Shown: positions 9,265 through 54,780, counted from the stretch's first letter. The stretch is 55,563 nucleotides of DNA from Candidatus Heimdallarchaeota archaeon (GCA_048881705.1 JBHLSH010000014.1:1-55563), one strand, 5' to 3'. Notes: generated by a model not told the origin, from the letters alone. Numbers and translations are program-made.

Positions 9265-12162
9265 TCACCTAGACATTTCTTCCTTGAGGAATACATCGAT
9301 AGATTTAGCACCCTGAATGAGGGAATTACCGTTGACAAGAACTTCATCATATTCTTCACTAGCTAGCTCTTGTTCAACAAATTCTTTGTCTTGTTCAGGA
9401 TTGAAGGATTCGGGTATGTCTCTCCAGACTACAACTACTGATTTTTCTGTTTGTTCCCCTTTTACGAAAACATACCTAATCTCGCCATTTCTTTTTAGAT
9501 AAATTGAGTTCACATCTATTCCTGCGATATAGTTGAAGGTTTCTACGAGATCTACATTAACCTCACGAATTATACCGTTCCTTTCAATTTTCAACTTGTA
9601 CTCAAAGGGATTGGCTAAAAGATCCAGATTAAGAAAGACATTATTGTCTCTAGTTTCATAATCCAACATGTATCGCAATTTATAGTCCTTAGAATCCTTT
9701 ACCAAAGACCTTGGCTCTACAAACTCAATGTTGAATAACGAATCTTCGTATTGTTCCAATGAGTGATATTTGAGGATTTGGTTTGGAATTCCATTGCGAT
9801 CTTGAGGTTTGCCATCTAACCAGCCCTCAGAAAAAATCACCTTCTTTATTCGTGGGAGTAGAATAGCATCAAAGTATTGAGCCATTTCAACCAAAATAAA
9901 CTTTCTTGATCCATTATCTTTTCTGTTTAGACTGAGAACTGCATGTCCAGTTGTGCCTGAACCCGCAAAATAATCTAAGATGATTTCCTGCTTATTGGAA
10001 CGAGTTGATATATCGATGATCTTCTGGATAAAGAAGGGGGATTTCGGAAAATCAAACGGTAAAACGCCGAATTGATGTCTTAGTATCTCTGTACCTTTTT
10101 CTGTATTCATCTCTCTCTCATCCCAAACTGAAAACGGCTTTTTCAACTTAACTGTACCGTTACCTTTGTGTAAATAGTCCTTTCTTTGAACTATCCACTT
10201 CATATTCTTTGTTTTCTTAGCTCTTAGGAGTTCGAGGTTTCTATCTACCTTTTCTTTCCCCCAAGTCCAACAATCTTCAACTCCTTTGCTGTTAAAGGGT
10301 TCTACTTTAATCCAATCTTCTTTTTCAGTCAAAGAGACTTCACTTGTAACAGGATTGGCAAAAATAGGATAGAATAAGTTGGACCGATTTTTTGCGTTGA
10401 ATTTTGGATTTCTATTTCGTAATTCTAACCATCTATACTCCCCAACATCGTCAATTTCCTTATAGTGTGCTCTTATCCTTTCATCTGGTTCTTGACCATA
10501 GATTGAATCGGCGTCAATATTCTTGGCGCATACTAAGCAGTACTCGTGCACAGAAGAAATGAATTTCCGGAGGGATCTTCCTCTGGGATTTGAGACAATT
10601 GTCAATTGTTCGATAAAATTATCACGGCCAAAGACGTGATCAAGACACAACCGCAAATGATCTAATTCGTTATCATCAATGCTTACAAAAAAGATCCCAT
10701 CATTTCTTAGCAGCTCTCTTCCTAACCGTAGGCCATCGTACATCATCGTGAGCCAACTAGAATGACGATAATTATCCTTGTAAAGGAATTCGTCGTTACC
10801 AGTATTGTAGGGAGGATCAATGTAACAACACTTTATTCTCTCTTGGTATTTATTGAGAAGGAGACTCAGAGCGTGGTAGTTGTTAGATTTAATCAAGATA
10901 CCATTTGTTTTTTTTTCGAGATCCTCAATTTCACTCAGGATCCGATATTTAAATTCGATGTCAAAGAATTTTGTATCAAGAACTAATGTTGGAAATTCCT
11001 CTAGACAATCAATCCTGAGATTGTCACCGTTCGATCCACCTTTTCTAAATTTTTCCTCAATGTCAAAATTGAATAATATTCTCCATTCCTCGAGTTGATC
11101 TTTATTGGATAGTATTGCAGGATAAAATTTCTTATCAATATAATCGAGAGTAATACAGTAATCGGTAGAAATGACAAATTTCCTCTTTTCCCATAGTCTT
11201 TTCTGAAAATCCTCTATTTGAGCTAAGAATGTTATTAGTTTCTGGCAGATGGTTCTGAAGACGGGAATAATGTTCGTTATAAGAGATAATTCTGTGTCTA
11301 ATTCGTAATTAGCAATAGAAAGAATCTCGTTTTTTATGTAGAAGTCCAGTTCTTGATTTAAGAAACCTCTTAAATCCTTGTGAATGAAATAATCAGAAGT
11401 GTTTTTGGTTGTATATTTATTTAAATGCCAGGCCAGCTCAGAAAGCGCTGATTCCTCCCCATTTATCTTAACATGCTTCTTTACTAATTTGGAAAAAATT
11501 TTCGGTTTAATTCTGTCCAAAATAGCCTTAGCATTGAAAGCGTTGATGTATTCTCTTTTTATAGATTTCTTGTTTAATGCAGTCTTGATGGCTTCAATTT
11601 CCTTTTCTGTCAATCCTCGATATGCAAATTTCAATTCCAAGGTGTTTACGTGTTTATCAAATCTTAATCCCTTAAAAACATAATATCGCTTCTTCGAATT
11701 CCCAATACTAGTTCCTATTACCTCAACTTCATCATTAATCTGTTTAAATTCTACTGTTAGGCCATCAATCAAGAATCTGTAATTTTTAAAGTCCTCACTT
11801 GTTTTTACATAATATTGGTCACTGTTTACCCAATAAAGATAAACTTCTTCTCCGTTATAGGGTATTACATACTTCCTTGTTTTAGAATATCGTCGTTTAG
11901 ATATAAAATCGCCACGGTCGTAGTATCGTGAAAAGAAATTAATAATATGGTCATAAATCTGCCTTTCCACTGCCTCTTCTATCTTTAATTTCCTTAATTC
12001 CTTTTCAATTGTCTCAAATAATTCTTGGTCAATGAAACTGGAAATTTCCTTTTTCTTGATATTAAGGATACGATAGATCCCAAAATCCAAATCCATATTC
12101 TCAAATTGAAATATCTTTTTTAAAACAAGTTTTAATCTGCTCCCTAATTCTTTAGTTGTCAA
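9265..12162 (-). CDS. mod: Type III R-M adenine DNA methyltransferase Mod subunit
   Basis: Catalytic motif YIDPPYNTG precedes SAM-binding LDYFAGSGTTG (beta-class order). TTG start with GGAG upstream. Lies directly upstream of res. Confidence 0.92.
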   Translation of the reverse strand: MTTKELGSRLKLVLKKIFQFENMDLDFGIYRILNIKKKEISSFIDQELFETIEKELRKLKIEEAVERQIYDHIINFFSRYYDRGDFISKRRYSKTRKYVIPYNGEEVYLYWVNSDQYYVKTSEDFKNYRFLIDGLTVEFKQINDEVEVIGTSIGNSKKRYYVFKGLRFDKHVNTLELKFAYRGLTEKEIEAIKTALNKKSIKREYINAFNAKAILDRIKPKIFSKLVKKHVKINGEESALSELAWHLNKYTTKNTSDYFIHKDLRGFLNQELDFYIKNEILSIANYELDTELSLITNIIPVFRTICQKLITFLAQIEDFQKRLWEKRKFVISTDYCITLDYIDKKFYPAILSNKDQLEEWRILFNFDIEEKFRKGGSNGDNLRIDCLEEFPTLVLDTKFFDIEFKYRILSEIEDLEKKTNGILIKSNNYHALSLLLNKYQERIKCCYIDPPYNTGNDEFLYKDNYRHSSWLTMMYDGLRLGRELLRNDGIFFVSIDDNELDHLRLCLDHVFGRDNFIEQLTIVSNPRGRSLRKFISSVHEYCLVCAKNIDADSIYGQEPDERIRAHYKEIDDVGEYRWLELRNRNPKFNAKNRSNLFYPIFANPVTSEVSLTEKEDWIKVEPFNSKGVEDCWTWGKEKVDRNLELLRAKKTKNMKWIVQRKDYLHKGNGTVKLKKPFSVWDEREMNTEKGTEILRHQFGVLPFDFPKSPFFIQKIIDISTRSNKQEIILDYFAGSGTTGHAVLSLNRKDNGSRKFILVEMAQYFDAILLPRIKKVIFSEGWLDGKPQDRNGIPNQILKYHSLEQYEDSLFNIEFVEPRSLVKDSKDYKLRYMLDYETRDNNVFLNLDLLANPFEYKLKIERNGIIREVNVDLVETFNYIAGIDVNSIYLKRNGEIRYVFVKGEQTEKSVVVVWRDIPESFNPEQDKEFVEQELASEEYDEVLVNGNSLIQGAKSIDVFLKEEMSR

Positions 12163-27605: not shown

Positions 27606-28052
27606 ATGGACATTCTGTTTCTAATTTTTAATGGATTTATAATAGGAATATTAGCGACTGGGATTATGTCAATTGGAAATATTCTCGTTTGGCGTAAATG
27701 GGGATTTCAAGGTGTTTTAGAGTGGGATGAGTCGAAAGGCATGATAGAAAAACTCCTCAGAAGGCCAATCCAAGAAACGAACATCTTGGTATATCTGCTC
27801 CATTTCTTCAATGGGGGATTACTCGCTGTTCCATTTCTTGTTCTAGTAAGTTGGTTGAAAATGGAAAACATATTAGTGGTGGTAGGGGTAATATATGCAC
27901 TGATTGTGTGGCTGGTAACGTTAGCACCTGTCCATAAATGGTTAACTGGCAATAATCTTTTCTCCTATCCAAAATTTGTTTACATAAGTATAGGAAATCA
28001 CCTTTTGTACGGATTAATACTGGGAATCTTCGTGGACCTTTCCTTGTGGTAA
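27606..28052 (+). CDS. Small 4-TM membrane protein, tandem paralogue of 27175..27588
   Basis: GILATGIMS, HFFNGGLL and HLLYGLILG match the upstream gene. Confidence 0.68.
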   Translation: MDILFLIFNGFIIGILATGIMSIGNILVWRKWGFQGVLEWDESKGMIEKLLRRPIQETNILVYLLHFFNGGLLAVPFLVLVSWLKMENILVVVGVIYALIVWLVTLAPVHKWLTGNNLFSYPKFVYISIGNHLLYGLILGIFVDLSLW

Positions 28053-28474
28053 TCCCCTTTGATTCTGAAACTGTACAATGTTAGTGTGATCATTCCTCCG
28101 AGAAGGAGATATACCATTTCAAGAGAAATGAGGTTCAGTATCTCATGATTTTGGAATAAAATCATGACAACATGCCCAATTGCTGCAGCCAGTAAGTGAA
28201 ATGCAATTAGATAGAAAACAGATCTGTCTACGGGGTGAGAAAAGACTATTTTTGATTTCCTTAGCGCCAATAGTAATAATCCACCTCCGTAAATCCCTCC
28301 TAATGCTACTAATGCATCGTACCAGAAAGGTATAAGCTCAGCAAACGTACTGTTGGTAATAATCCGCACCAGCATTAGTGATATCCCCAATAGATATGTG
28401 AGGAGAATTACTACCCGAAAATAGGATTTGGATAGATTTATTCTCAAAATCGTGTTGGATTGCACTTTAGACAT
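27998..28474 (-). CDS. Hypothetical 4-TM membrane protein, last gene of the crtI-crtY arm
   Basis: Starts 12 nt after the crtY stop; four hydrophobic segments. Confidence 0.7.
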   Translation of the reverse strand: MSKVQSNTILRINLSKSYFRVVILLTYLLGISLMLVRIITNSTFAELIPFWYDALVALGGIYGGGLLLLALRKSKIVFSHPVDRSVFYLIAFHLLAAAIGHVVMILFQNHEILNLISLEMVYLLLGGMITLTLYSFRIKGDYHKERSTKIPSINPYKR

Positions 28475-28486
28475 GATGATTCACTC

Positions 28487-29320
28487 TTATGACACGGTTC
28501 CCTTTTCTTTATCAATAAATCTGTATACTAACACGTTTTTCAGGAACGTTACTAATGATCTCATCCGCTCTTGACTATGAACATCCATCAGTAGTATAAA
28601 CCCAAAAACAATCAGAATATCTGTGACAAAAAAGAAAATCAATTCTTCTAATGGTAGAACTCCACCAATCAAAATGCCTAAGGAGGTTGCTGGAGCTATC
28701 GTCCACACACCATTGAAGATTGCGTATGCATCAACCACGGAGAGATAAAGGGATGGAATGAGGATCGCGGGTAAAACGAGTTTTCGATGCCTCCAAAGAA
28801 TATCAGCTCCAAATCCCAATTGGAATAGAATAGGAGGGAAAAACCACACAATGATTAACGCTAAATACGTTCCATTCGAAAAATCTAAAATAAAAATGAT
28901 AAGAGAGAGAATCCACGGTAAGAAAAACGTCAAAAAACCGATTGATCTTATTAAGGATCCGCTTTTTGGTTGTTTTGAGCTGGGTTGATAATAATTTAGA
29001 CCCCATATGACGATTGAACCGACCAATAGGGGTTGGACAACGAAAAAGGTGTACTCCTCGACTGGTACAAAACCGATGATGATACCCAAAATCTGATTTA
29101 GTTCATAAAACCAAACACCTGTTGCCACCAAATAATTATCCCAAGGCGTAGTATAAATTAAAGCAATTGCACTTAAAATAAATAGCCCCACCACGGGATT
29201 AATTCCTAATAATATCTGTTTTTTGCCTTTTTTCCTACGTGATTCAAATAAATTTATGAGGAAAACCCCAAGGAAGGGTAAAAAAATGAAATAGATAAGA
29301 AAATCTAAGTAGGTTAACAT
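28487..29320 (-). CDS. crtY: Lycopene cyclase, fused CrtYc/Yd membrane type
   Basis: Duplicated domain: PWDNYLVATGVW...PVEEYTFF and VDAYAIFNGVW...PLEELIFF. Adjacent to crtI. Confidence 0.88.
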   Translation of the reverse strand: MLTYLDFLIYFIFLPFLGVFLINLFESRRKKGKKQILLGINPVVGLFILSAIALIYTTPWDNYLVATGVWFYELNQILGIIIGFVPVEEYTFFVVQPLLVGSIVIWGLNYYQPSSKQPKSGSLIRSIGFLTFFLPWILSLIIFILDFSNGTYLALIIVWFFPPILFQLGFGADILWRHRKLVLPAILIPSLYLSVVDAYAIFNGVWTIAPATSLGILIGGVLPLEELIFFFVTDILIVFGFILLMDVHSQERMRSLVTFLKNVLVYRFIDKEKGTVS

Positions 29321-29334
29321 ATATCCTCCTCCGT

Positions 29335-30933
29335 TTAATTAGGTGAAGCTCCAGGGGCAAGATTAGGTAAAGCACCATTAAGATCTTCCAGAACTAGATC
29401 TGTGGTGATTTTGGCGCTTGAAACAACGCCAGGGAGGCCAGCCCCGGGATGAGTTCCAGCTCCCACTAAGTAAAGACCCTCTATATCTTCTGATCGATTA
29501 TGAGGTCTGAACCAAGCCGATTGAGTAAAAATAGGTTCAAGAGAGAATCCCGATCCTTTGGTAGCAAGGTATTCGGTGTGAAAATCTAGCGGAGTGAACA
29601 CCTTTTCGACAACCAAATTTTCCTTGAGATCAGGTAGGTAATTCTCCTCCAAAAAAGTAAAGACCTTTTCTTTGAAGGGCTCAGCTAGCTCTTCCCATTT
29701 TACACCCGAATCCAGATGAGGTACTGGAATTAGGATGTAAAAGGCTTCGTGGCCTTCTGGAGCTAAACTGGGGTCTGTTCGAGTTGGAACATGCAAATAA
29801 CTAGAAAAATCATCCGATAAAACTTTCTTCTTGAATATATCTTCAAGTAATCCTTTATAACGACTTCCTAGAAGTATTGTGTGGTGTTTCATGCCTGGAT
29901 ATTGCTTTTTGGTTCCAAAGTAGATAACAACAAGCCCCATACTATATTTTGCCTTTTTATATCGTTTATCTGAATTCTTTTTACGCCACTTGTTCTCTAT
30001 CAGTTTGGTGTATGTAAAGGCAACATCGGCATTTGAAATTACGATATTAGATGGATATTTATGCCCATCCTTGGTCGTTACTCCAGTAACTCGGCCATTT
30101 TCTACGTTAATATCTGAGATTTCAGCATTTAATATGATTTCTCCACCTAATTCGGTAAAAAGAGTCGCAAGTCCGTGAACAAGGCTTGTCGTTCCACCCT
30201 TGGCAAACCAAACCCCATATGTCTTTTCTAAATACTGGATTAAACTGTAAATTGAAGGGACAGTAAAGGGATTTCCCCCTATGAGGAGGGGATGAAATGA
30301 GAAAACACGGCGTAGTTTTTCATTTTTGATATACTTTGATACAAAATTGTAATTGGAGCGATATGATTGAAGCTTAACTAACGAAGGAGCGACCTTAAGC
30401 ATGCTTGAGAACGTTGTAAAGGGTTTAAAAGAGAGTTCTTGGAATCCTTTTTTGAATATAGGTTCAATGGCTTTCAGCATCTTTTCATACCCCTCTACGT
30501 CCTTTGGACTCATTTCCGCAATTTGAGGAATATTATCTTCGGGATGACCATAATCAAAAAAGGTTTGATCATCAAAATGAATTCGATAATACGGTGTTAC
30601 CGGTAAAAGCTCCATATAATTATTTATATCACGATTTGCCAATCGGAATAAATCTTCAAATATAAAAGGCGCCGTTATCACTGTTGGTCCAGCATCAAAG
30701 CTGAATCCGTCAATTTTATAGACTCCAGCTCTACCCCCGATTTGATCTCGTCTTTCCAGCATTTTAACCTTGAAACCAGCATTCTGCATGCGGATTCCTG
30801 CTGCTAAACCCCCGAAGCCCGAACCAATAATTATAATTTGGTTTTTGTGTTTTATAGATTTTCCATTTTCTTCCGTAATCATTGAAAATACGTCTCCGAT
30901 AGTATTCATTTCAATTTCAGGAATTTTTATCAA
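29335..30933 (-). CDS. crtI: Phytoene desaturase; true start may be ATG at 30909 or 30883
   Basis: FAD motif IIGSGFGGLAAG, FDAGPTVIT, GGNPF, and C-terminal LYLVGAGTHPGAGLPGV. Confidence 0.95.
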   Translation of the reverse strand: MIKIPEIEMNTIGDVFSMITEENGKSIKHKNQIIIIGSGFGGLAAGIRMQNAGFKVKMLERRDQIGGRAGVYKIDGFSFDAGPTVITAPFIFEDLFRLANRDINNYMELLPVTPYYRIHFDDQTFFDYGHPEDNIPQIAEMSPKDVEGYEKMLKAIEPIFKKGFQELSFKPFTTFSSMLKVAPSLVKLQSYRSNYNFVSKYIKNEKLRRVFSFHPLLIGGNPFTVPSIYSLIQYLEKTYGVWFAKGGTTSLVHGLATLFTELGGEIILNAEISDINVENGRVTGVTTKDGHKYPSNIVISNADVAFTYTKLIENKWRKKNSDKRYKKAKYSMGLVVIYFGTKKQYPGMKHHTILLGSRYKGLLEDIFKKKVLSDDFSSYLHVPTRTDPSLAPEGHEAFYILIPVPHLDSGVKWEELAEPFKEKVFTFLEENYLPDLKENLVVEKVFTPLDFHTEYLATKGSGFSLEPIFTQSAWFRPHNRSEDIEGLYLVGAGTHPGAGLPGVVSSAKITTDLVLEDLNGALPNLAPGASPN

Positions 30934-30954
30934 TTTATTTTCTATTAACCCTGA

Positions 30955-31020
30955 TTACATGGAAATTGATATATTTCATGAATTGAATTTCGCTTCATGA
31001 AGTTTATAAATCATGTGAAA
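30955..31020. promoter_or_regulatory. Divergent crtI/crtB control region with TATA box and repeated CATG sites
   Basis: CATG at 30958, 30977, 30996 (19-bp period) and 31012. TTCATGAA palindromes at 30975 and 30994. TTTATAAA at 31003-31010. Confidence 0.5.
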
Positions 31021-31064
31021 ATAAGCCCATCTCAAGAGATAAAACTCCTATAAGTGACAAAACG

Positions 31065-32009
31065 ATGTATTCAACACAAGAACAGACGAACTATGGGTTA
31101 ATTCCAGAAACTTGGAATAATGAGTTCAATCTTCTCAAGGAATCTCTTGAGGAAAGCTATAATCACTGCCTGGAGTGGATGGAAATTCATAGCAAATCCT
31201 TCTACTTCGCGTCCCGTTTTCTCCCCTCGGAGCAACGTAAGTCTGTTGCCGCGCTGTATGCATTCTGTCGTTTGACAGATGATATCGTAGATGAGACGCC
31301 GGAAGACACATCCAATGAGGCTATTAATGCGGAACTAGATAATCTCAAAGAAACTATTACACGATTGGCTCACGGATACACATCATCTGAGCCAATTTTA
31401 CAGGCCTTCGGAGATACAATTCGTAAACATCGTATTCCGATCAAATACATGCATGAATTAATAGAAGGTGTTCGTATGGATTTGATAAAGAAGGAATACA
31501 AGACGGACGAGGAACTAGACCTGTATATGTACCGCGTTGCTAGTACTGTCGGACTAATGATGACCCATATTTTTCTAGACAACCCTGCCCCTAGTACATT
31601 GGCAAGAGCATCAGATCTTGGCAAAGCCATGCAACTGACAAACATACTACGTGATATCAAGGAAGATTTCAATAAAGGACGTATTTATCTGCCCGAAGAA
31701 ACTAGAAAAATGTATAATGTCTCAAAGGCGGATCTTGAAAAGGACATAGTCACCGAGGATTTGAAACGACTAATCCGATATGAATCAGAAAGAGCAAACA
31801 GCTATTATAACCAAGCAGATCTGGGAATTGATGATTTGCCACCTGCAGCCGCTTACACGGTTAAAGTTGCCTCAAGAGTTTATGGCGAGATTCTGAATGA
31901 GATCAAGCGACAAGATTATCAGATTTTAACCCAGAGAGCTGTTGTATCAAAGGTTCGAAAACTTATGCTCGCTTCTAAAGTGAGACTAGAATACCTAGGG
32001 AAAATTTAG
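31065..32009 (+). CDS. crtB: Phytoene synthase
   Basis: SKSFYFASRFL, YAFCRLTDDIVD, YMYRVASTVG and QLTNILRDIKED...GRIYLP. Confidence 0.95.
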   Translation: MYSTQEQTNYGLIPETWNNEFNLLKESLEESYNHCLEWMEIHSKSFYFASRFLPSEQRKSVAALYAFCRLTDDIVDETPEDTSNEAINAELDNLKETITRLAHGYTSSEPILQAFGDTIRKHRIPIKYMHELIEGVRMDLIKKEYKTDEELDLYMYRVASTVGLMMTHIFLDNPAPSTLARASDLGKAMQLTNILRDIKEDFNKGRIYLPEETRKMYNVSKADLEKDIVTEDLKRLIRYESERANSYYNQADLGIDDLPPAAAYTVKVASRVYGEILNEIKRQDYQILTQRAVVSKVRKLMLASKVRLEYLGKI

Positions 32010-32052: not shown

Positions 32053-33021
32053 ATGGCATCATCAAAAGACGTCATCCTTAATTATCTTAAGTTAAATAGA
32101 GGAAGAGAAATCCCCGTTTCAGAAATTAAAGTATCCTGTAACCTTAAACTTTCAACAATCTCTAACGCAATTAAGGAACTTCAATATCGCAATTTAATCA
32201 ATATTGAAAGACGACCACTCAAGCGGGGCAAGTACACAGTTATCACACTTGCAAGTGATATCATTGAACACCGATATGTTCATCCCAAAGAATACAATCC
32301 GCCCCCTAGAGATGATACACCCAAATCAGAAACGATCTTACAAGAAGATGTAAACCATTCCTTTCAAGAGCTTCTTGACACATATATCGCGAACCTGATC
32401 TCCGATGACTATAATATGGAGACATTCGGCCAGGAAATCGCTGATAGATACCCTGATCACTTTCAGCTGGTTACCGCATTCATTACACCATTATTAGTTG
32501 AAGTAGGGAGACGGTGGGAGGAGGGAACTCTCACTACAGCCGAAGAACATGTCATTTCGTCAAGATTGGAGAAATTTATAATCCAGTTGATTCCCCAAAA
32601 ACTGGATAAAAGCAAGGCAACAGTTCTATTGGTTACGGTTGAGGGAGAAGAGCATGTAATAGGGTTGCTGGCTTTGGAACTATTATTGCGTGAAAATGGA
32701 CATCGGGTTGTCAATTTGGGGAGAACCCTCCCAATAAAATCATTAATTCAGTATATTGAAGATCAAGCTATCAAACCTGACTGGATATGTTTTTCAGTCA
32801 CTATTGACGCATTTATTGGAACCTTGTTGCGGGAAATAAGGGAGATTAAAGCCCATTTCAAGGATAGGATAAAAATCGCGGTAGGCGGACAAGCCCTACA
32901 AAAACATAGAAATACTTTCGTTGAAGTAGATACCCTGATCACCTCAGATCATCATTTGTTTGTATTCATTCATGATATTCTTCCCGACTCAGTAAAACCT
33001 TTGATTGGGCAGAACACATGA
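32053..33021 (+). CDS. wHTH + cobalamin-binding transcriptional regulator (CarH/LitR-like sensor domain)
   Basis: W-x9-EH motif (RWEEGTLTTAEEH) and E-x-H-x-x-G (GEEHVIG) as in CarH. The N-terminal domain is a MarR/TrmB-like wHTH. Confidence 0.85.
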   Translation: MASSKDVILNYLKLNRGREIPVSEIKVSCNLKLSTISNAIKELQYRNLINIERRPLKRGKYTVITLASDIIEHRYVHPKEYNPPPRDDTPKSETILQEDVNHSFQELLDTYIANLISDDYNMETFGQEIADRYPDHFQLVTAFITPLLVEVGRRWEEGTLTTAEEHVISSRLEKFIIQLIPQKLDKSKATVLLVTVEGEEHVIGLLALELLLRENGHRVVNLGRTLPIKSLIQYIEDQAIKPDWICFSVTIDAFIGTLLREIREIKAHFKDRIKIAVGGQALQKHRNTFVEVDTLITSDHHLFVFIHDILPDSVKPLIGQNT

Positions 33022-33057: not shown

Positions 33058-33828
33058 ATGTTATCAACCGAGAAAAATTCGTTATTTACAATAGGAAGCA
33101 TAGTATCATTAATTATGACTATCATTGTCAACTTTTTGGCAATTGCACTTCCATTAAATGGTAAAACGACCCAAGAACTATCTGATGGCTATCCCAATCC
33201 TTTTACGCCAGCTGGATATGTCTTTTCGATTTGGAGCATAATATATACGTTATTAATTGTTTTCGTGCTCTATCAGACTGTTAATAGAGAAAAAGTATTC
33301 GATTCAACTCTTTCAGGTCTATTTATTATCAGTAATATCTTTAATTCAGTTTGGATCTTTCTATGGCATTATGAACAGATCTTCCTCTCCTTGGTCGTAA
33401 TGATTGGACTTCTGTTAACTCTGATTGGGATCTATTGGCGATTAAAAATAGGACTGGTAGAGGTTGACTCACGAACAAAGTGGGCGGTTCACGTCCCTTT
33501 CAGTGTATATCTGGGTTGGATCTCCGTAGCCACAATAGCCAATACTACTGTATTCCTCTTATCAATAAATTGGGATGGATTCGGTGTTGGAGCTGAAATT
33601 TGGACAGGAATCGTACTATTCGTCGCGACTATTCTCGCAATGATTTTAGTTATGACCAGAAATGACGTTGCATACGGATTAGTTGCCATTTGGGCATTCA
33701 TAGGAATTATTGTCAAACAATTCACGACGAGTACTATCGTTGCTGGAACCGCAGGATTATTTACTTTGATTATTCTTTTAACTATCGTTGGTAAAAATTT
33801 CAGCAATTTCTATAATAGTCGGACTTGA
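33058..33828 (+). CDS. Tryptophan-rich sensory protein (TspO/MBR-like)
   Basis: FTPAGYVFSIWSIIY, NSVWIFLWH and FSVYLGWISVATIAN. Follows the B12 regulator by 36 nt. Confidence 0.78.
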   Translation: MLSTEKNSLFTIGSIVSLIMTIIVNFLAIALPLNGKTTQELSDGYPNPFTPAGYVFSIWSIIYTLLIVFVLYQTVNREKVFDSTLSGLFIISNIFNSVWIFLWHYEQIFLSLVVMIGLLLTLIGIYWRLKIGLVEVDSRTKWAVHVPFSVYLGWISVATIANTTVFLLSINWDGFGVGAEIWTGIVLFVATILAMILVMTRNDVAYGLVAIWAFIGIIVKQFTTSTIVAGTAGLFTLIILLTIVGKNFSNFYNSRT

Positions 33829-33857: not shown

Positions 33858-35222
33858 TTAGAGAGGAAACAAGGAGATTTCTTCTTCTCTTATTTGATCG
33901 GCCAATTTTACACATTCATAGATTATGAAGAATGGAATTCTGTCAGTATCGAAGGCAAGATTTCGGGGATGCTTTTTAATTACATCAAAACTCGGTTTTG
34001 GTTCAACTATATCACGAATTACAAAACCTGCTTGTTTTAAGGCCGTGACATATTCGGATAACGTTCGATCGAATTGCCATATTGGCTTTAGAGTTCCCCA
34101 GGATATTAATGTCCCCCCCGAATCAAAATATCTGTCAATCATCACATATAGCCGTTCTTCGTTCCTAGGAGTGTCCGAAGGTATACGATAAAAGAGGTTA
34201 CTAACCCGACCGAAGACTGGATGTAAATTTGACCATATAAACCTCCCCGAAGACTTTAAAATTCTTGCAATTTCTTTGAATGCCCCCTTATAATCTAGGA
34301 CATCTACAAACACAATGTTTGATACAATTAGATCAAAGCTATCATCCTCAAACATTATTAGGTCTTCTAAACTTTGGACAAAGTATTTTATCCCGAGAGA
34401 TTGCTCTTCCTCCCTTTCTTTACAATAGTCGATAAATACACGTGATTGATCGACTCCTGACACTATGGCTCCTTTTTGAGCAAGAATTCGACTCAGATAT
34501 CCGTTTCCACATCCTGCATCCAAAACTGCCAGTCCTTTGACGTCTCCTATCAGCTCCCACATAGCTGGATCAATGATGAGCTGTCTATTCAAATCCCCTT
34601 TATCTTCTTGGGTGGTCTTATCCACTAATTCTATCCATTGGTTGCTTGTTTCTTCCCACTGGTCCAGAACATCGGATTGCTTGAGCTGCTCTTGGTTTAT
34701 TAGATCAGAGTGGAATTTGGTTATTCTAAAGGGCGCTCTCAAATTTAAAGTAGAATTCGGGATCCTTAACGCATCTTCGAGTGTAATTTCCTTCCCTCTA
34801 CGTGGCTGGTTTGGAGTCCATCTTCTTTTGCTGGAAGTTTCCTTTAAAATCGCATTTGTGTACTGGTTCATCTTGTTTTGCCAGGGGTGAGTACCCTGGT
34901 ACTCAGCATAGTACAAATCATAGTGATCCTCCCCACAAAGTGAACAGTGGAAACTGTACGTATAGGTGGTACTCCAGAATTTTGTAGGTTTTAAAATAGG
35001 AGGATTACAGTCTCCGCAGGTGAGTTGCCGCTTTTTTTGACACCAATATAGCCAGCTGAAATGATGAAACTTCAAACAACTTGAACACTGGAATTGGGAA
35101 TGTAAGGGGCATCTTAGAGCTGTGTTATCCGTTGTGAACGTCCCTTCACGAGGAAAATAATTTGGTTCATAGCTGCATATCTTTTTACAGTAAAAACACG
35201 ATGATTCTTGCTGAATTTCCAT
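33858..35222 (-). CDS. Cys/His-rich Zn-finger domain fused to a class I SAM-dependent methyltransferase
   Basis: CxxC pairs in the first ~110 aa. VLDAGCGNGY and FDRTLSEYVTALKQAGF in the C-half. Confidence 0.8.
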   Translation of the reverse strand: MEIQQESSCFYCKKICSYEPNYFPREGTFTTDNTALRCPLHSQFQCSSCLKFHHFSWLYWCQKKRQLTCGDCNPPILKPTKFWSTTYTYSFHCSLCGEDHYDLYYAEYQGTHPWQNKMNQYTNAILKETSSKRRWTPNQPRRGKEITLEDALRIPNSTLNLRAPFRITKFHSDLINQEQLKQSDVLDQWEETSNQWIELVDKTTQEDKGDLNRQLIIDPAMWELIGDVKGLAVLDAGCGNGYLSRILAQKGAIVSGVDQSRVFIDYCKEREEEQSLGIKYFVQSLEDLIMFEDDSFDLIVSNIVFVDVLDYKGAFKEIARILKSSGRFIWSNLHPVFGRVSNLFYRIPSDTPRNEERLYVMIDRYFDSGGTLISWGTLKPIWQFDRTLSEYVTALKQAGFVIRDIVEPKPSFDVIKKHPRNLAFDTDRIPFFIIYECVKLADQIREEEISLFPL

Positions 35223-53700: not shown

Positions 53701-54780
53701 ACCATCCAGGAATTCCGTTAACTCCCCCAAATCCATCTGTTCTACTAATTCAAACGGTCCCCATGGATTATGATAATGGAGCTTCATTCCTTTGTCGATA
53801 TCTTGGACCGTAGCAATCTCTTCTTCCAAGACTTTTACCGCTTCATTAATCTGAACACGTATCAAATCCATAAGATCAAAATCTGCGGGATTCGACCGAT
53901 CAATGACCGGTCGCTTACCTTCTGGACGCCATTTATGGATTCCCTCCCCTGTTTTTCTCCCCAGTTTGTTTTCCTTCACTAGTTCGGATATTGTTCGAGT
54001 AGGAGTATATTCCCTGGAAAGGTGTTCTGCAAAGGATTTTGAACTATCATATATAACATCGAGTCCAATATAGTCAAGGAGCTCGTATGGTCCCATAATC
54101 ATACCCCAGTTCAAAGCAGCTGCATCGATTTTTTCTGGGGAATAATCCCCTTTATCGAGCATTAATTGAAGTAAAAGTACCGATGGTGCCATGATGCGAT
54201 TACATATGAACCCAGGACTATCTTTGGAAATGATATGGGATTTTCCAGTCTTCTTCGCGAAGGCAATAGCGAATTCCATTGTACCTTCAGAGGTTTCGTT
54301 CCCTCTCACGATCTCGATAACTTTCGCCAGAACTGGAGGAGGTGGAAAATGTAGTCCCACCACCTTATCAGGTCGTTGCGTCACACTCCCGATTTCTGTG
54401 ATGCTTAATGTCGATGTATTTGATGCTAGAATTGCATGTTTGGGTGAAAAGCGATCTAAAGTTTTGAAAATCTCTTTTTTTAGTTCTAACTTTTCAGGTA
54501 CTGCTTCAATGCAAAGAATGGTATTTTCAGCAGCTTTTTTAATGCTAGTGGTAGTTTCAAGGTTGTTAACGAGTTGATTATACGCTTTTTCAGTTATTTG
54601 TGCTTTAGTTACAAATTTTTTAAGGGACCATTCAATTAACGATTTTCCTTTGGCAAGGATCTCTTCATTAATGTCAACAAGAGAAGCCATATAATCTGAT
54701 AGTAGAGCTACTTCCGCTATGCCATGGCCCATGTGGCCTGCTCCTATGACTGCTATTTTACTCAAATTTTCCCTTTTCAC
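53617..54780 (-). CDS. 3-hydroxyacyl-CoA dehydrogenase with duplicated C-terminal domain
   Basis: AVIGAGHMGHGIA, IEAVPEKLELK, ASNTSTL, GLHF, PGFICNR, GPYELLDYIGLD and a second GPFEL unit. Confidence 0.9.
   Translation of the reverse strand: MKRENLSKIAVIGAGHMGHGIAEVALLSDYMASLVDINEEILAKGKSLIEWSLKKFVTKAQITEKAYNQLVNNLETTTSIKKAAENTILCIEAVPEKLELKKEIFKTLDRFSPKHAILASNTSTLSITEIGSVTQRPDKVVGLHFPPPPVLAKVIEIVRGNETSEGTMEFAIAFAKKTGKSHIISKDSPGFICNRIMAPSVLLLQLMLDKGDYSPEKIDAAALNWGMIMGPYELLDYIGLDVIYDSSKSFAEHLSREYTPTRTISELVKENKLGRKTGEGIHKWRPEGKRPVIDRSNPADFDLMDLIRVQINEAVKVLEEEIATVQDIDKGMKLHYHNPWGPFELVEQMDLGELTEFLDGLADKHGKKVFRAHKWIRDMTLSDRIKQ

Follow-up and report, generated by a model that had tools for sequence, protein, structure and literature searches.

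Which protein governs the carotenoid genes of this archaeon, and could light be the signal to which it responds? The question is raised by a gene at positions 32053 to 33021 of a stretch of 55,563 nucleotides from a Candidatus Heimdallarchaeota archaeon (GCA_048881705.1, JBHLSH010000014.1:1-55563), which was analysed at its full length and is called the window below. The gene lies between crtB, which encodes phytoene synthase, and a TspO-like gene, and its product, referred to here as the regulator, joins an N-terminal winged helix-turn-helix domain (wHTH) to a cobalamin-binding domain (CBD) of the CarH type. A first-pass annotation had proposed a CarH-like photoreceptor on a winged helix other than MerR for the control of the carotenoid (crt) genes, and the signature motifs, the fold, the predicted dimer, the gene order and the conserved promoter boxes described below support this proposal computationally. 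The regulator is probably a repressor of carotenogenesis that depends on adenosylcobalamin (AdoCbl) and is released by light, CarH-like in function on a canonical winged helix; the broader claim, that it is a B12-based, light-sensing regulator of crt genes, is very likely. The gene and its domains, with positions in the protein given in amino acids (aa), are laid out as follows.

32053-33021, + strand: regulator gene, ATG start, 322 aa, encoding wHTH, linker and CarH-type CBD (open reading frame and translation)
32053-32289, + strand: N-terminal wHTH, aa 1-79 (DSSP, conservation and Foldseek)
32290-32352, + strand: flexible linker rich in proline and acidic residues, aa 80-100 (composition; predicted local distance difference test, pLDDT, <50 at aa 87-100)
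32353-32589, + strand: four-helix bundle, aa 101-179, with G152-x-x-W155 and E165-H166 (W155 codon 32515-32517; E165-H166 codons 32545-32550)
32620-32988, + strand: Rossmann B12-binding module, aa 190-312, with H201 (codon 32653-32655), G223-x-x-x-P227, S248-x-T250 and G278-G279

The reading frame given in the first-pass annotation was recovered with exactly the same coordinates, and its proline-rich, acidic linker was borne out by the composition and the low pLDDT values of that segment. An AlphaFold2 model of the whole regulator, built from an alignment of 29 sequences, had a mean pLDDT of 85.2 and placed in order the winged helix, the flexible linker, the four-helix bundle and the Rossmann fold. 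The linker region (approximately aa 79-100), rich in Pro, Asp and Glu, was modelled as disordered and differs in length across the family. Pfam analysis matched B12-binding_2 at aa 137-175 (23.6 bits against a cut-off of 23) and B12-binding (PF02310) at aa 190-286 (47.1 bits against a cut-off of 32.1), and a six-frame search placed a B12-binding match at 32620-32910.

Both CarH signatures that had been read in the sequence earlier were found intact by motif search, as W155-x9-E165-H166 and E199-E-H201-V-I-G204, and the B12 motif goes on after G204 with 43 residues, S248-V-T250, a further 27 residues and G278-G279. Wx9EH plus D/ExHxxG...SxT/V...GG is the definition of CarH-type domains (PMC9304148). 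All four elements of the experimentally backed signature of light-responsive CBDs described by Yu et al. with SignatureFinder, namely GxxW, EH, GxxH and GxxxP (PMC11796333), are also present, as G152-R-R-W155, E165-H166, G198-E-E-H201 and G223-R-T-L-P227; some relatives carry Asn or Ser in place of the Gly of GxxH, and GxxxP is partly lost among them. Since W155, E165, H166 and H201 are invariant across the 29-sequence family alignment, whose members, three close relatives excepted, are no more than 35-50% identical to the window's protein, the Wx9EH and His motifs are conserved beyond chance. H201 is the predicted lower axial ligand of the cobalamin.

Structural comparison led to the same group of proteins. 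In a Foldseek search against the PDB, ranks 1-10 were all B12 photoreceptors (E 4e-9 to 1e-7), comprising the photocobilins 8j2w/x/y, AerR 7te2, CtMerR 8jbs/t and CarH 8c31/5c8d, and the first corrinoid methyltransferase protein appeared only at rank 18. With the family profile, GxxW...EH and GxxH fell on their counterparts in photocobilin 8j2w and CtMerR 8jbs, and in the aligned corrinoid proteins, 4jgi and MttC, Phe replaces the Trp and EH is lacking. When the CBD alone was searched against 1.84 billion representative proteins, 5853 matches were obtained, and Wx9[E/D]H was present in 142 of the best 144.

The DNA-binding domain belongs to a different class from that of the bacterial photoreceptors. 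The wHTH modelled alone had a pLDDT of 86 and the topology H-(b)-H-H-b-b of a canonical winged helix, with helices at aa 4-14, 22-29 and 33-45 and strands at aa 49-56 and 60-66 according to DSSP. The recognition helix (aa 33-45), which carries the invariant T35-I-S-N-A39, and the wing (aa 49-66, with ERRPLKRG-Y-T-V) show the highest conservation within the domain in the family alignment. No Pfam match to MerR or MerR_1 was found in the N-terminus even at E values up to 10, and the recognition-helix motif RxWERRY is absent from the regulator sequence.

Matches of the N-terminus to MarR_2, MarR, HTH_27 and HTH_11 were all sub-threshold (E 0.003-0.09). Judged against the Pfam gathering thresholds for membership of MarR or TrmB (PF12802, PF01047 and PF01978), no family was reached, with MarR_2 at 18.1 bits against a cut-off of 27 and MarR at 16.3 bits against a cut-off of 24.6 (aa 1-96); some relatives have precomputed matches to HTH_11, MarR_2 or TrmB. 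The nearest solved folds were those of Pyrococcus PH1061 (1ub9), a Methanosarcina regulator (3r0a), LmrR/PadR and MarR, followed by CzrA/SmtB (ArsR-type), TFE and the winged helix of RNA polymerase III C34, and MerR was not among the listed neighbours. Because the isolated wHTH gave no Foldseek match at E <= 0.001, the domain can be placed at the level of the fold, not within MarR, TrmB, ArsR or PadR. Of the earlier description as MarR/TrmB-like and not MerR, the winged-helix fold and the separation from MerR therefore stand, and the assignment to MarR/TrmB at family level, where matches were sub-threshold, does not.

The CBD is also predicted to pair. Two copies of aa 100-315 co-folded with an interaction prediction score from aligned errors (ipSAE) of 0.66, the best control having 0.00; 20 of 30 proteins with a solved structure as one-chain pairs attained this mark, as did one of 23 solved single chains. 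Three runs shared at least 89% of contacts, with a partner pLDDT of at least 84. The predicted interface is symmetric and head-to-tail, with the EH helix (aa 161-180) of one copy against the GxxxP loop (aa 220-241) of the other, and the same interface has been described for CtMerR (PMC11796333). As similar complexes have already been solved, the score shows likeness to them and is not proof of pairing.

The position of the gene indicates what the regulator is likely to control. The genes adjoining it are the following.

28487-29320, - strand: fused lycopene cyclase of the CrtYcd type (TIGR03462 CarR_dom_SF, 111 bits, in two stretches)
29335-30933, - strand: crtI, phytoene desaturase, divergent from crtB (TIGR02734 crtI_fam, 599.5 bits)
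31065-32009, + strand: crtB, phytoene synthase, 43 bp upstream of the regulator (SQS_PSY, E 5e-80)
33058-33828, + strand: TspO/MBR-like membrane protein, 256 aa, 36 bp after the regulator (PF03073 in the six-frame search, 34.1 bits against a cut-off of 24)

These matches uphold the placement between crtB and a TspO-like gene that had been proposed. A scan with one genome per species found the order of cyclase and crtI on one side, reading away from crtB and the regulator on the other, in 13 of 13 related loci. Neither a TATA element nor a box of the kind described below is present in the 43-bp gap between crtB and the regulator in the window, so that the regulator is probably co-transcribed with crtB. 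The TspO-like gene, which has an AGGAG-like site before its ATG, is probably the last gene of a crtB-regulator-tspO unit. Plain hmmscan against Pfam and NCBIfam assigned no family to its product; the TspO likeness was revealed by the six-frame search and by the Atlas, whose neighbours agree with the assignment. The Rhodobacter TspO homologue CrtK likewise lies inside a crt cluster, and the presence of this gene in the cluster hints at a link to tetrapyrroles or to photo-oxidative stress.

A candidate operator was identified between crtI and crtB (30934-31064), within the stretch 30955-31020 that the first-pass annotation had named as the place to look for binding. That stretch indeed holds conserved TTCATGAA boxes beside TATA elements.

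30956-30963: degenerate box TACATGGA, flanking box 1 at 19 bp on its upstream side
30975-30982: candidate operator box 1, TTCATGAA (palindrome), abutting a TATA-like TGATATAT (30967-30974) that faces crtI
30994-31001: candidate operator box 2, TTCATGAA, 19 bp from box 1, abutting TTTATAAA (31003-31010) that faces crtB
31010-31017: ATCATGTG, a weak fourth site with CATG that follows box 2 by 16 bp, lost in the closest relative (locus L001) and of doubtful role

The two exact copies of TTCATGAA in this intergenic region are the only ones in the window, and the pair was found once in the 3.96-Mb genome. In an unbiased word count over the orthologous, otherwise diverged crtI-crtB intergenic regions, with the near-identical L001 left out, TTCATGAA was the most shared 8-mer (12 of 12 regions), and TATA words ranked next. 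Eight regions have two exact copies and the remaining ones have copies with one mismatch, such as the TTTATGAA that was read off the sequence of L006 approximately 19 bp from its exact box. In the 11 regions that have both boxes inside the counted stretch, the boxes are spaced by 18 or 19 bp. The flanking box TACATGGA of the window corresponds, as a one-mismatch match, to TACATGAA at the same spacing in L001.

A pair of TTCATGAA boxes adjoins a TATA box in 12 of 13 loci as well as in the window. Ten loci have the order TATA (aTATTTAAATA), box 1, box 2 and crtB start, and a site directly downstream of TATA is the classic position for an archaeal repressor. Two divergent TATA-like elements flank the boxes in the window and in L001, each box abutting TATA on the side of the B recognition element (BRE). 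In L002-L005 a degenerate pair, TTCATAAA-N10-GTCATGAA, occurs with the same spacing in a longer gap between crtB and the regulator (approximately 9911-9945); it is absent from the gap in the window. This second pair upstream of the regulator suggests an autoregulatory site in those loci. Because the box and the recognition helix are both invariant across diverged genomes, the comparison of sequences supports the two as a cognate pair.

A mechanism can be proposed on this basis. In the dark, AdoCbl would be sandwiched between the four-helix bundle and the Rossmann module, with H201 as the lower ligand and with W155, E165 and H166 capping the adenosyl group. The CBDs would pair head-to-tail, possibly up to a tetramer, and the oligomer would set the winged helices on TTCATGAA boxes 18-19 bp apart. 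Whether these boxes lie at the BRE sides, as in the window, or just downstream of TATA, as in most relatives, their occupation would block TBP, TFB or RNA polymerase. The block would act on crtB-regulator-tspO and probably on crtI-crtYcd, and the circuit would be autoregulated, since the regulator is very likely co-transcribed with crtB. In the light, the Co-C bond would be cleaved, the oligomer would loosen, DNA binding would be lost and the carotenoid genes would be expressed.

Several points weigh against this reading. We infer AdoCbl binding, photolysis, oligomer state, DNA binding and repression alike from computation, and the predicted CBD dimer may echo the solved CarH and CtMerR structures rather than the behaviour of the regulator itself. 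Family members have G, S, T, V, P or A at the position of the Gly of ExHxxG. The residue after W155 is Glu, compared with His in TtCarH, which excludes a bis-His light state here as in CtMerR and the photocobilins, and light-driven disassembly may accordingly differ or be weaker. CtMerR, which has Arg after the Trp, is not monomerised by anaerobic light (PMC11796333). For a dimer of winged helices a palindrome of 8 bp is rather short, which makes the stoichiometry on DNA uncertain. The two strong boxes of the window lie upstream of both candidate TATA boxes, and archaeal sites upstream of TATA can also serve activators. Finally, related metagenome-assembled genomes (MAGs) bear isolate names from sediment samples, and the light exposure of these organisms may be limited.

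The promoter arrangement of the window and L001, where the exact boxes occupy the space between the two candidate TATA elements, upstream of each, is the main argument for a light-dependent activator, one state of which would bind the boxes and recruit TBP and TFB to the crt promoters, as some archaeal activators sit upstream of TATA. Such an activator is nevertheless unlikely, because in the ten other loci the boxes lie directly downstream of TATA, before the crtB start, and because in the window they abut TATA at the BRE position, where a bound protein would occlude TFB rather than recruit it. In addition, the characterised fusions of a CBD to a DNA-binding domain, CarH and LitR, are all repressors (PMC9304148). 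It is decidedly unlikely that the regulator senses cobalamin as a nutrient or cofactor, its DNA binding tracking the availability of AdoCbl and light having no role. The domain is B12-binding by homology and the genome has many B12 enzymes, but the sole conserved target is a carotenoid cluster without a B12-dependent step, and the adenosyl-capping Wx9EH, which marks light-responsive CBDs, is invariant. Moreover, AdoCbl in such a pocket is inherently photolabile.

Also to be considered is a repressor independent of B12, like CarA of Myxococcus, or, like AerR, a sensor of the hydroxocobalamin left by photolysis, the CBD serving only to dimerise or to bind the product of light. CarA retains a B12-binding motif yet functions without B12, but it has lost the Trp and the flanking residues of Wx9EH (PMC9304148); the regulator family keeps the full motif and the His ligand through 29 diverged sequences. 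AerR (7te2) is among the best structural matches, but it has no DNA-binding domain, and we regard both variants as very unlikely. Some source annotations name relatives "methanogenic corrinoid protein MtbC1", as the JGI does, and there are weak NCBIfam matches to MtgC (41.3 bits) and MtbC (30.5 bits), which would make the regulator a corrinoid carrier of a methyltransferase system. These two scores are far under their cut-offs of 350-370 bits, a conserved winged helix is attached and no methyltransferase partner lies nearby, so that such a role is extremely improbable. The carrier families MtbC, MttC, MtgC and MtaC, which as a group scored 29-41 bits against cut-offs of 350-450 and whose corrinoid proteins have Phe for W155 and no EH, were rejected.

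An AdoCbl-dependent, light-released repressor is thus the reading we retain, and its closest functional counterpart is CarH/class I LitR (Thermus thermophilus, Myxococcus xanthus and Bacillus megaterium; 5c8d, 5c8e and 3whp). Shared with these proteins are the four-helix bundle with Wx9EH, the Rossmann module with E/DxHxxG...SxT...GG, a predicted head-to-tail CBD dimer, the location in a carotenoid cluster and repeated boxes overlapping a crt promoter. The regulator differs from them in that its DNA-binding domain is a winged helix of the ArsR/MarR/PadR type, not a MerR domain with the RxWERRY helix; in that its operator consists of two 8-bp palindromes 18-19 bp apart, whereas that of CarH consists of three tandem 11-bp repeats; and in that it would act on an archaeal TATA/BRE promoter and, lacking His after the Trp, without the bis-His light state. 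The NCBIfam equivalog for CarH (NF052513, TransRegCarH) scored 40.7 bits against a cut-off of 400 and covered only part of the CBD (aa 139-236). As this score is far under the cut-off and the defining MerR domain is absent, the regulator is not a member of CarH/LitR.

Among solved proteins, the CBD of CtMerR from Chloracidobacterium thermophilum (8jbs/8jbt) and the photocobilins (8j2w-8j2y) are the best matches in sequence and structure, and like the regulator they have a residue other than His after the Trp. They differ in that their CBDs are partnered by MerR or by a biliverdin-binding globin with GGDEF, all are bacterial, and identity is approximately 19-22%. Uncharacterised fusions of an XRE-type HTH (HTH_3) to a CBD in MAGs of Clostridiales/Bacillota, which also replace MerR, are among the nearest CBDs outside the family; they have another DNA-binding fold, bacterial hosts and no known targets, and the tree does not resolve them as the sister group. 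Archaeal repressors of the MarR, ArsR, TrmB and PadR types that act at TATA, BRE or the transcription start site (1ub9, 3r0a) share the DNA-binding fold and the box position by TATA, but none matches the regulator at family level, the best Pfam score remaining at 18.1 bits against 27. We know of no archaeal winged-helix repressor with a cobalamin photosensor.

A literature search found no description of this wHTH-CBD architecture, which agrees with the earlier statement that none was known from Asgard archaea. The SignatureFinder survey mentions HTH-CBD fusions in general and does not mention archaea (PMC11796333). The regulator probably represents a light switch for pigment synthesis that has not been described in archaea before.

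The range of the regulator is narrow. It was found in 16 of 400 Asgard species genomes, the window's own included: in 13 of 21 genomes of the family designated f1 plus the window's own genome, in two of 12 genomes of f6, a family of the same class, and in no other family. Family f1 corresponds to Hodarchaeaceae, because the coordinates of its genome G057 are those of locus L013, Candidatus Hodarchaeum mangrovi. Within the class, crtB was found in 17 of 83 genomes, namely the same 16 as the regulator plus G063, in which the search of the 400 genomes found no regulator; these genomes are related and not independent, and the pattern therefore serves as description only. The spread is narrower than suggested by the NCBI labels of the relatives (Thor-, Hermod-, Hod-, Heimdall- and Promethearchaeota).

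Genome kinship groups the window's genome with the family of Candidatus Hodarchaeum mangrovi, and NCBI assigns these MAGs to phyla inconsistently. The closest relative, L001 (JBHLRO010000028), has 92-96% protein identity over the cluster and is labelled Thorarchaeota by NCBI. A divergent member of the family (P0058 and P0194), with 29% identity, the same wHTH (STLSNAIKEL), Wx9DH and GDQH, was recovered from a MAG that bears the label Methanobacteriota/Euryarchaeota; the family may extend beyond Asgard archaea, or the label of that MAG may be mistaken. The attribution to Asgard archaea in the first-pass annotation therefore holds for Hodarchaeaceae and one more family of the same class, with this one divergent MAG in addition, and not for Asgard archaea in general.

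In a FastTree phylogeny of 179 CBDs, the 49 archaeal wHTH-CBD sequences formed one clan with a support of 100 and a stem of 0.82 changes per column, which is compatible with a single event of fusion. The tree resolved no sister group or donor (support 76, with long branches meeting), so that the bacterial origin that had been assumed for the B12 module is not shown by it. Among the 133 nearest CBDs outside the family, 44 are fused to MerR, 21 to an XRE-type HTH and none to a winged helix of the MarR/TrmB type. In longer forms of the regulator (366-382 aa) there is an additional winged helix, which sits at the N-terminus or lies as an insertion between the first one and the CBD; such forms are found in loci L008, L009 (regulator at approximately 10001-11140), L010, L011 and L012 and as proteins P0020, P0021, P0024, P0026, P0030, P0042 and P0043.

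Further observations concern the surroundings of the crt cluster. A gene at 27998-28474 (- strand), 12 nt after the lycopene cyclase gene, encodes a 158-aa membrane protein of no known family that was found by tblastn only in the near-identical L001. A gene at 33858-35222 (- strand), convergent with the TspO-like gene and kept in L001, encodes a 454-aa protein with a class I S-adenosylmethionine-dependent methyltransferase domain at aa 229-334 and an N-terminal part of approximately 210 aa without a family. Relatives of the TspO-like gene in L004, L008 and L009 sit elsewhere in the cluster, beyond the cyclase. Several Heimdall-labelled genomes have a second, convergent pair of crtI and crtB paralogues just 3' of the regulator (L009:12104-14540, L010:4170-6109, L012:4221-5288 and L008:13638-13982), with approximately 58% and 71% identity to the genes of the window.

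With respect to the cofactor, the same genome encodes adenosyltransferases of the PduO and CobA types and eight other genes with B12 domains. A 148-aa B12-binding protein lies approximately 2 kb from the CobA-type adenosyltransferase (G000:C9:51982-52329 and 54111-54620, - strand), and this locus could be a cluster with the small subunit of a methylmalonyl-CoA-mutase-type enzyme. With respect to light, the genome has a heliorhodopsin gene (G000:C17:27475-28236, - strand; PF18761, 273.7 bits), which at exact match lies outside the predicted regulon because paired TTCATGAA boxes occur only at the crt promoter. Type-1 rhodopsin (PF01036) and the beta-carotene dioxygenase Blh (PF15461) gave no match, and as the controls were equally without match, this result carries no weight.

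Taken together, we lean towards seeing in the regulator the first transcription factor of Asgard archaea that is itself a photoreceptor, derived from one ancient fusion of a photoactive B12 domain with an archaeal winged helix, restricted to Hodarchaeaceae and one other family of the same class, and gating promoters of the TBP/TFB type by green light through a new TTCATGAA operator. Published gene maps of Asgard archaea leave genes beside crtB and crtI as "unknown function", and the present reading, if true, could give a function to one gene of those maps (PMC12137139). It would mean that the sensor of CarH also functions with a DNA-binding domain of another, unrelated class and with a plain palindrome as operator, and that a promoter dependent on TBP and TFB has come under the control of B12 photochemistry. 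To our knowledge, light-controlled transcription is barely known in archaea, and the literature search yielded no account of it in Asgard archaea, the closest prokaryotic relatives of eukaryotes. The regulator would offer a natural means of switching a eukaryote-like basal transcription machinery by light, and as a compact green-light switch it would be a new optogenetic part that may carry over to eukaryote-like transcription systems. For the organisms themselves, it would mean that those of the Hodarchaeales type live with light and respond to it, consistent with their heliorhodopsin and carotenoid genes.

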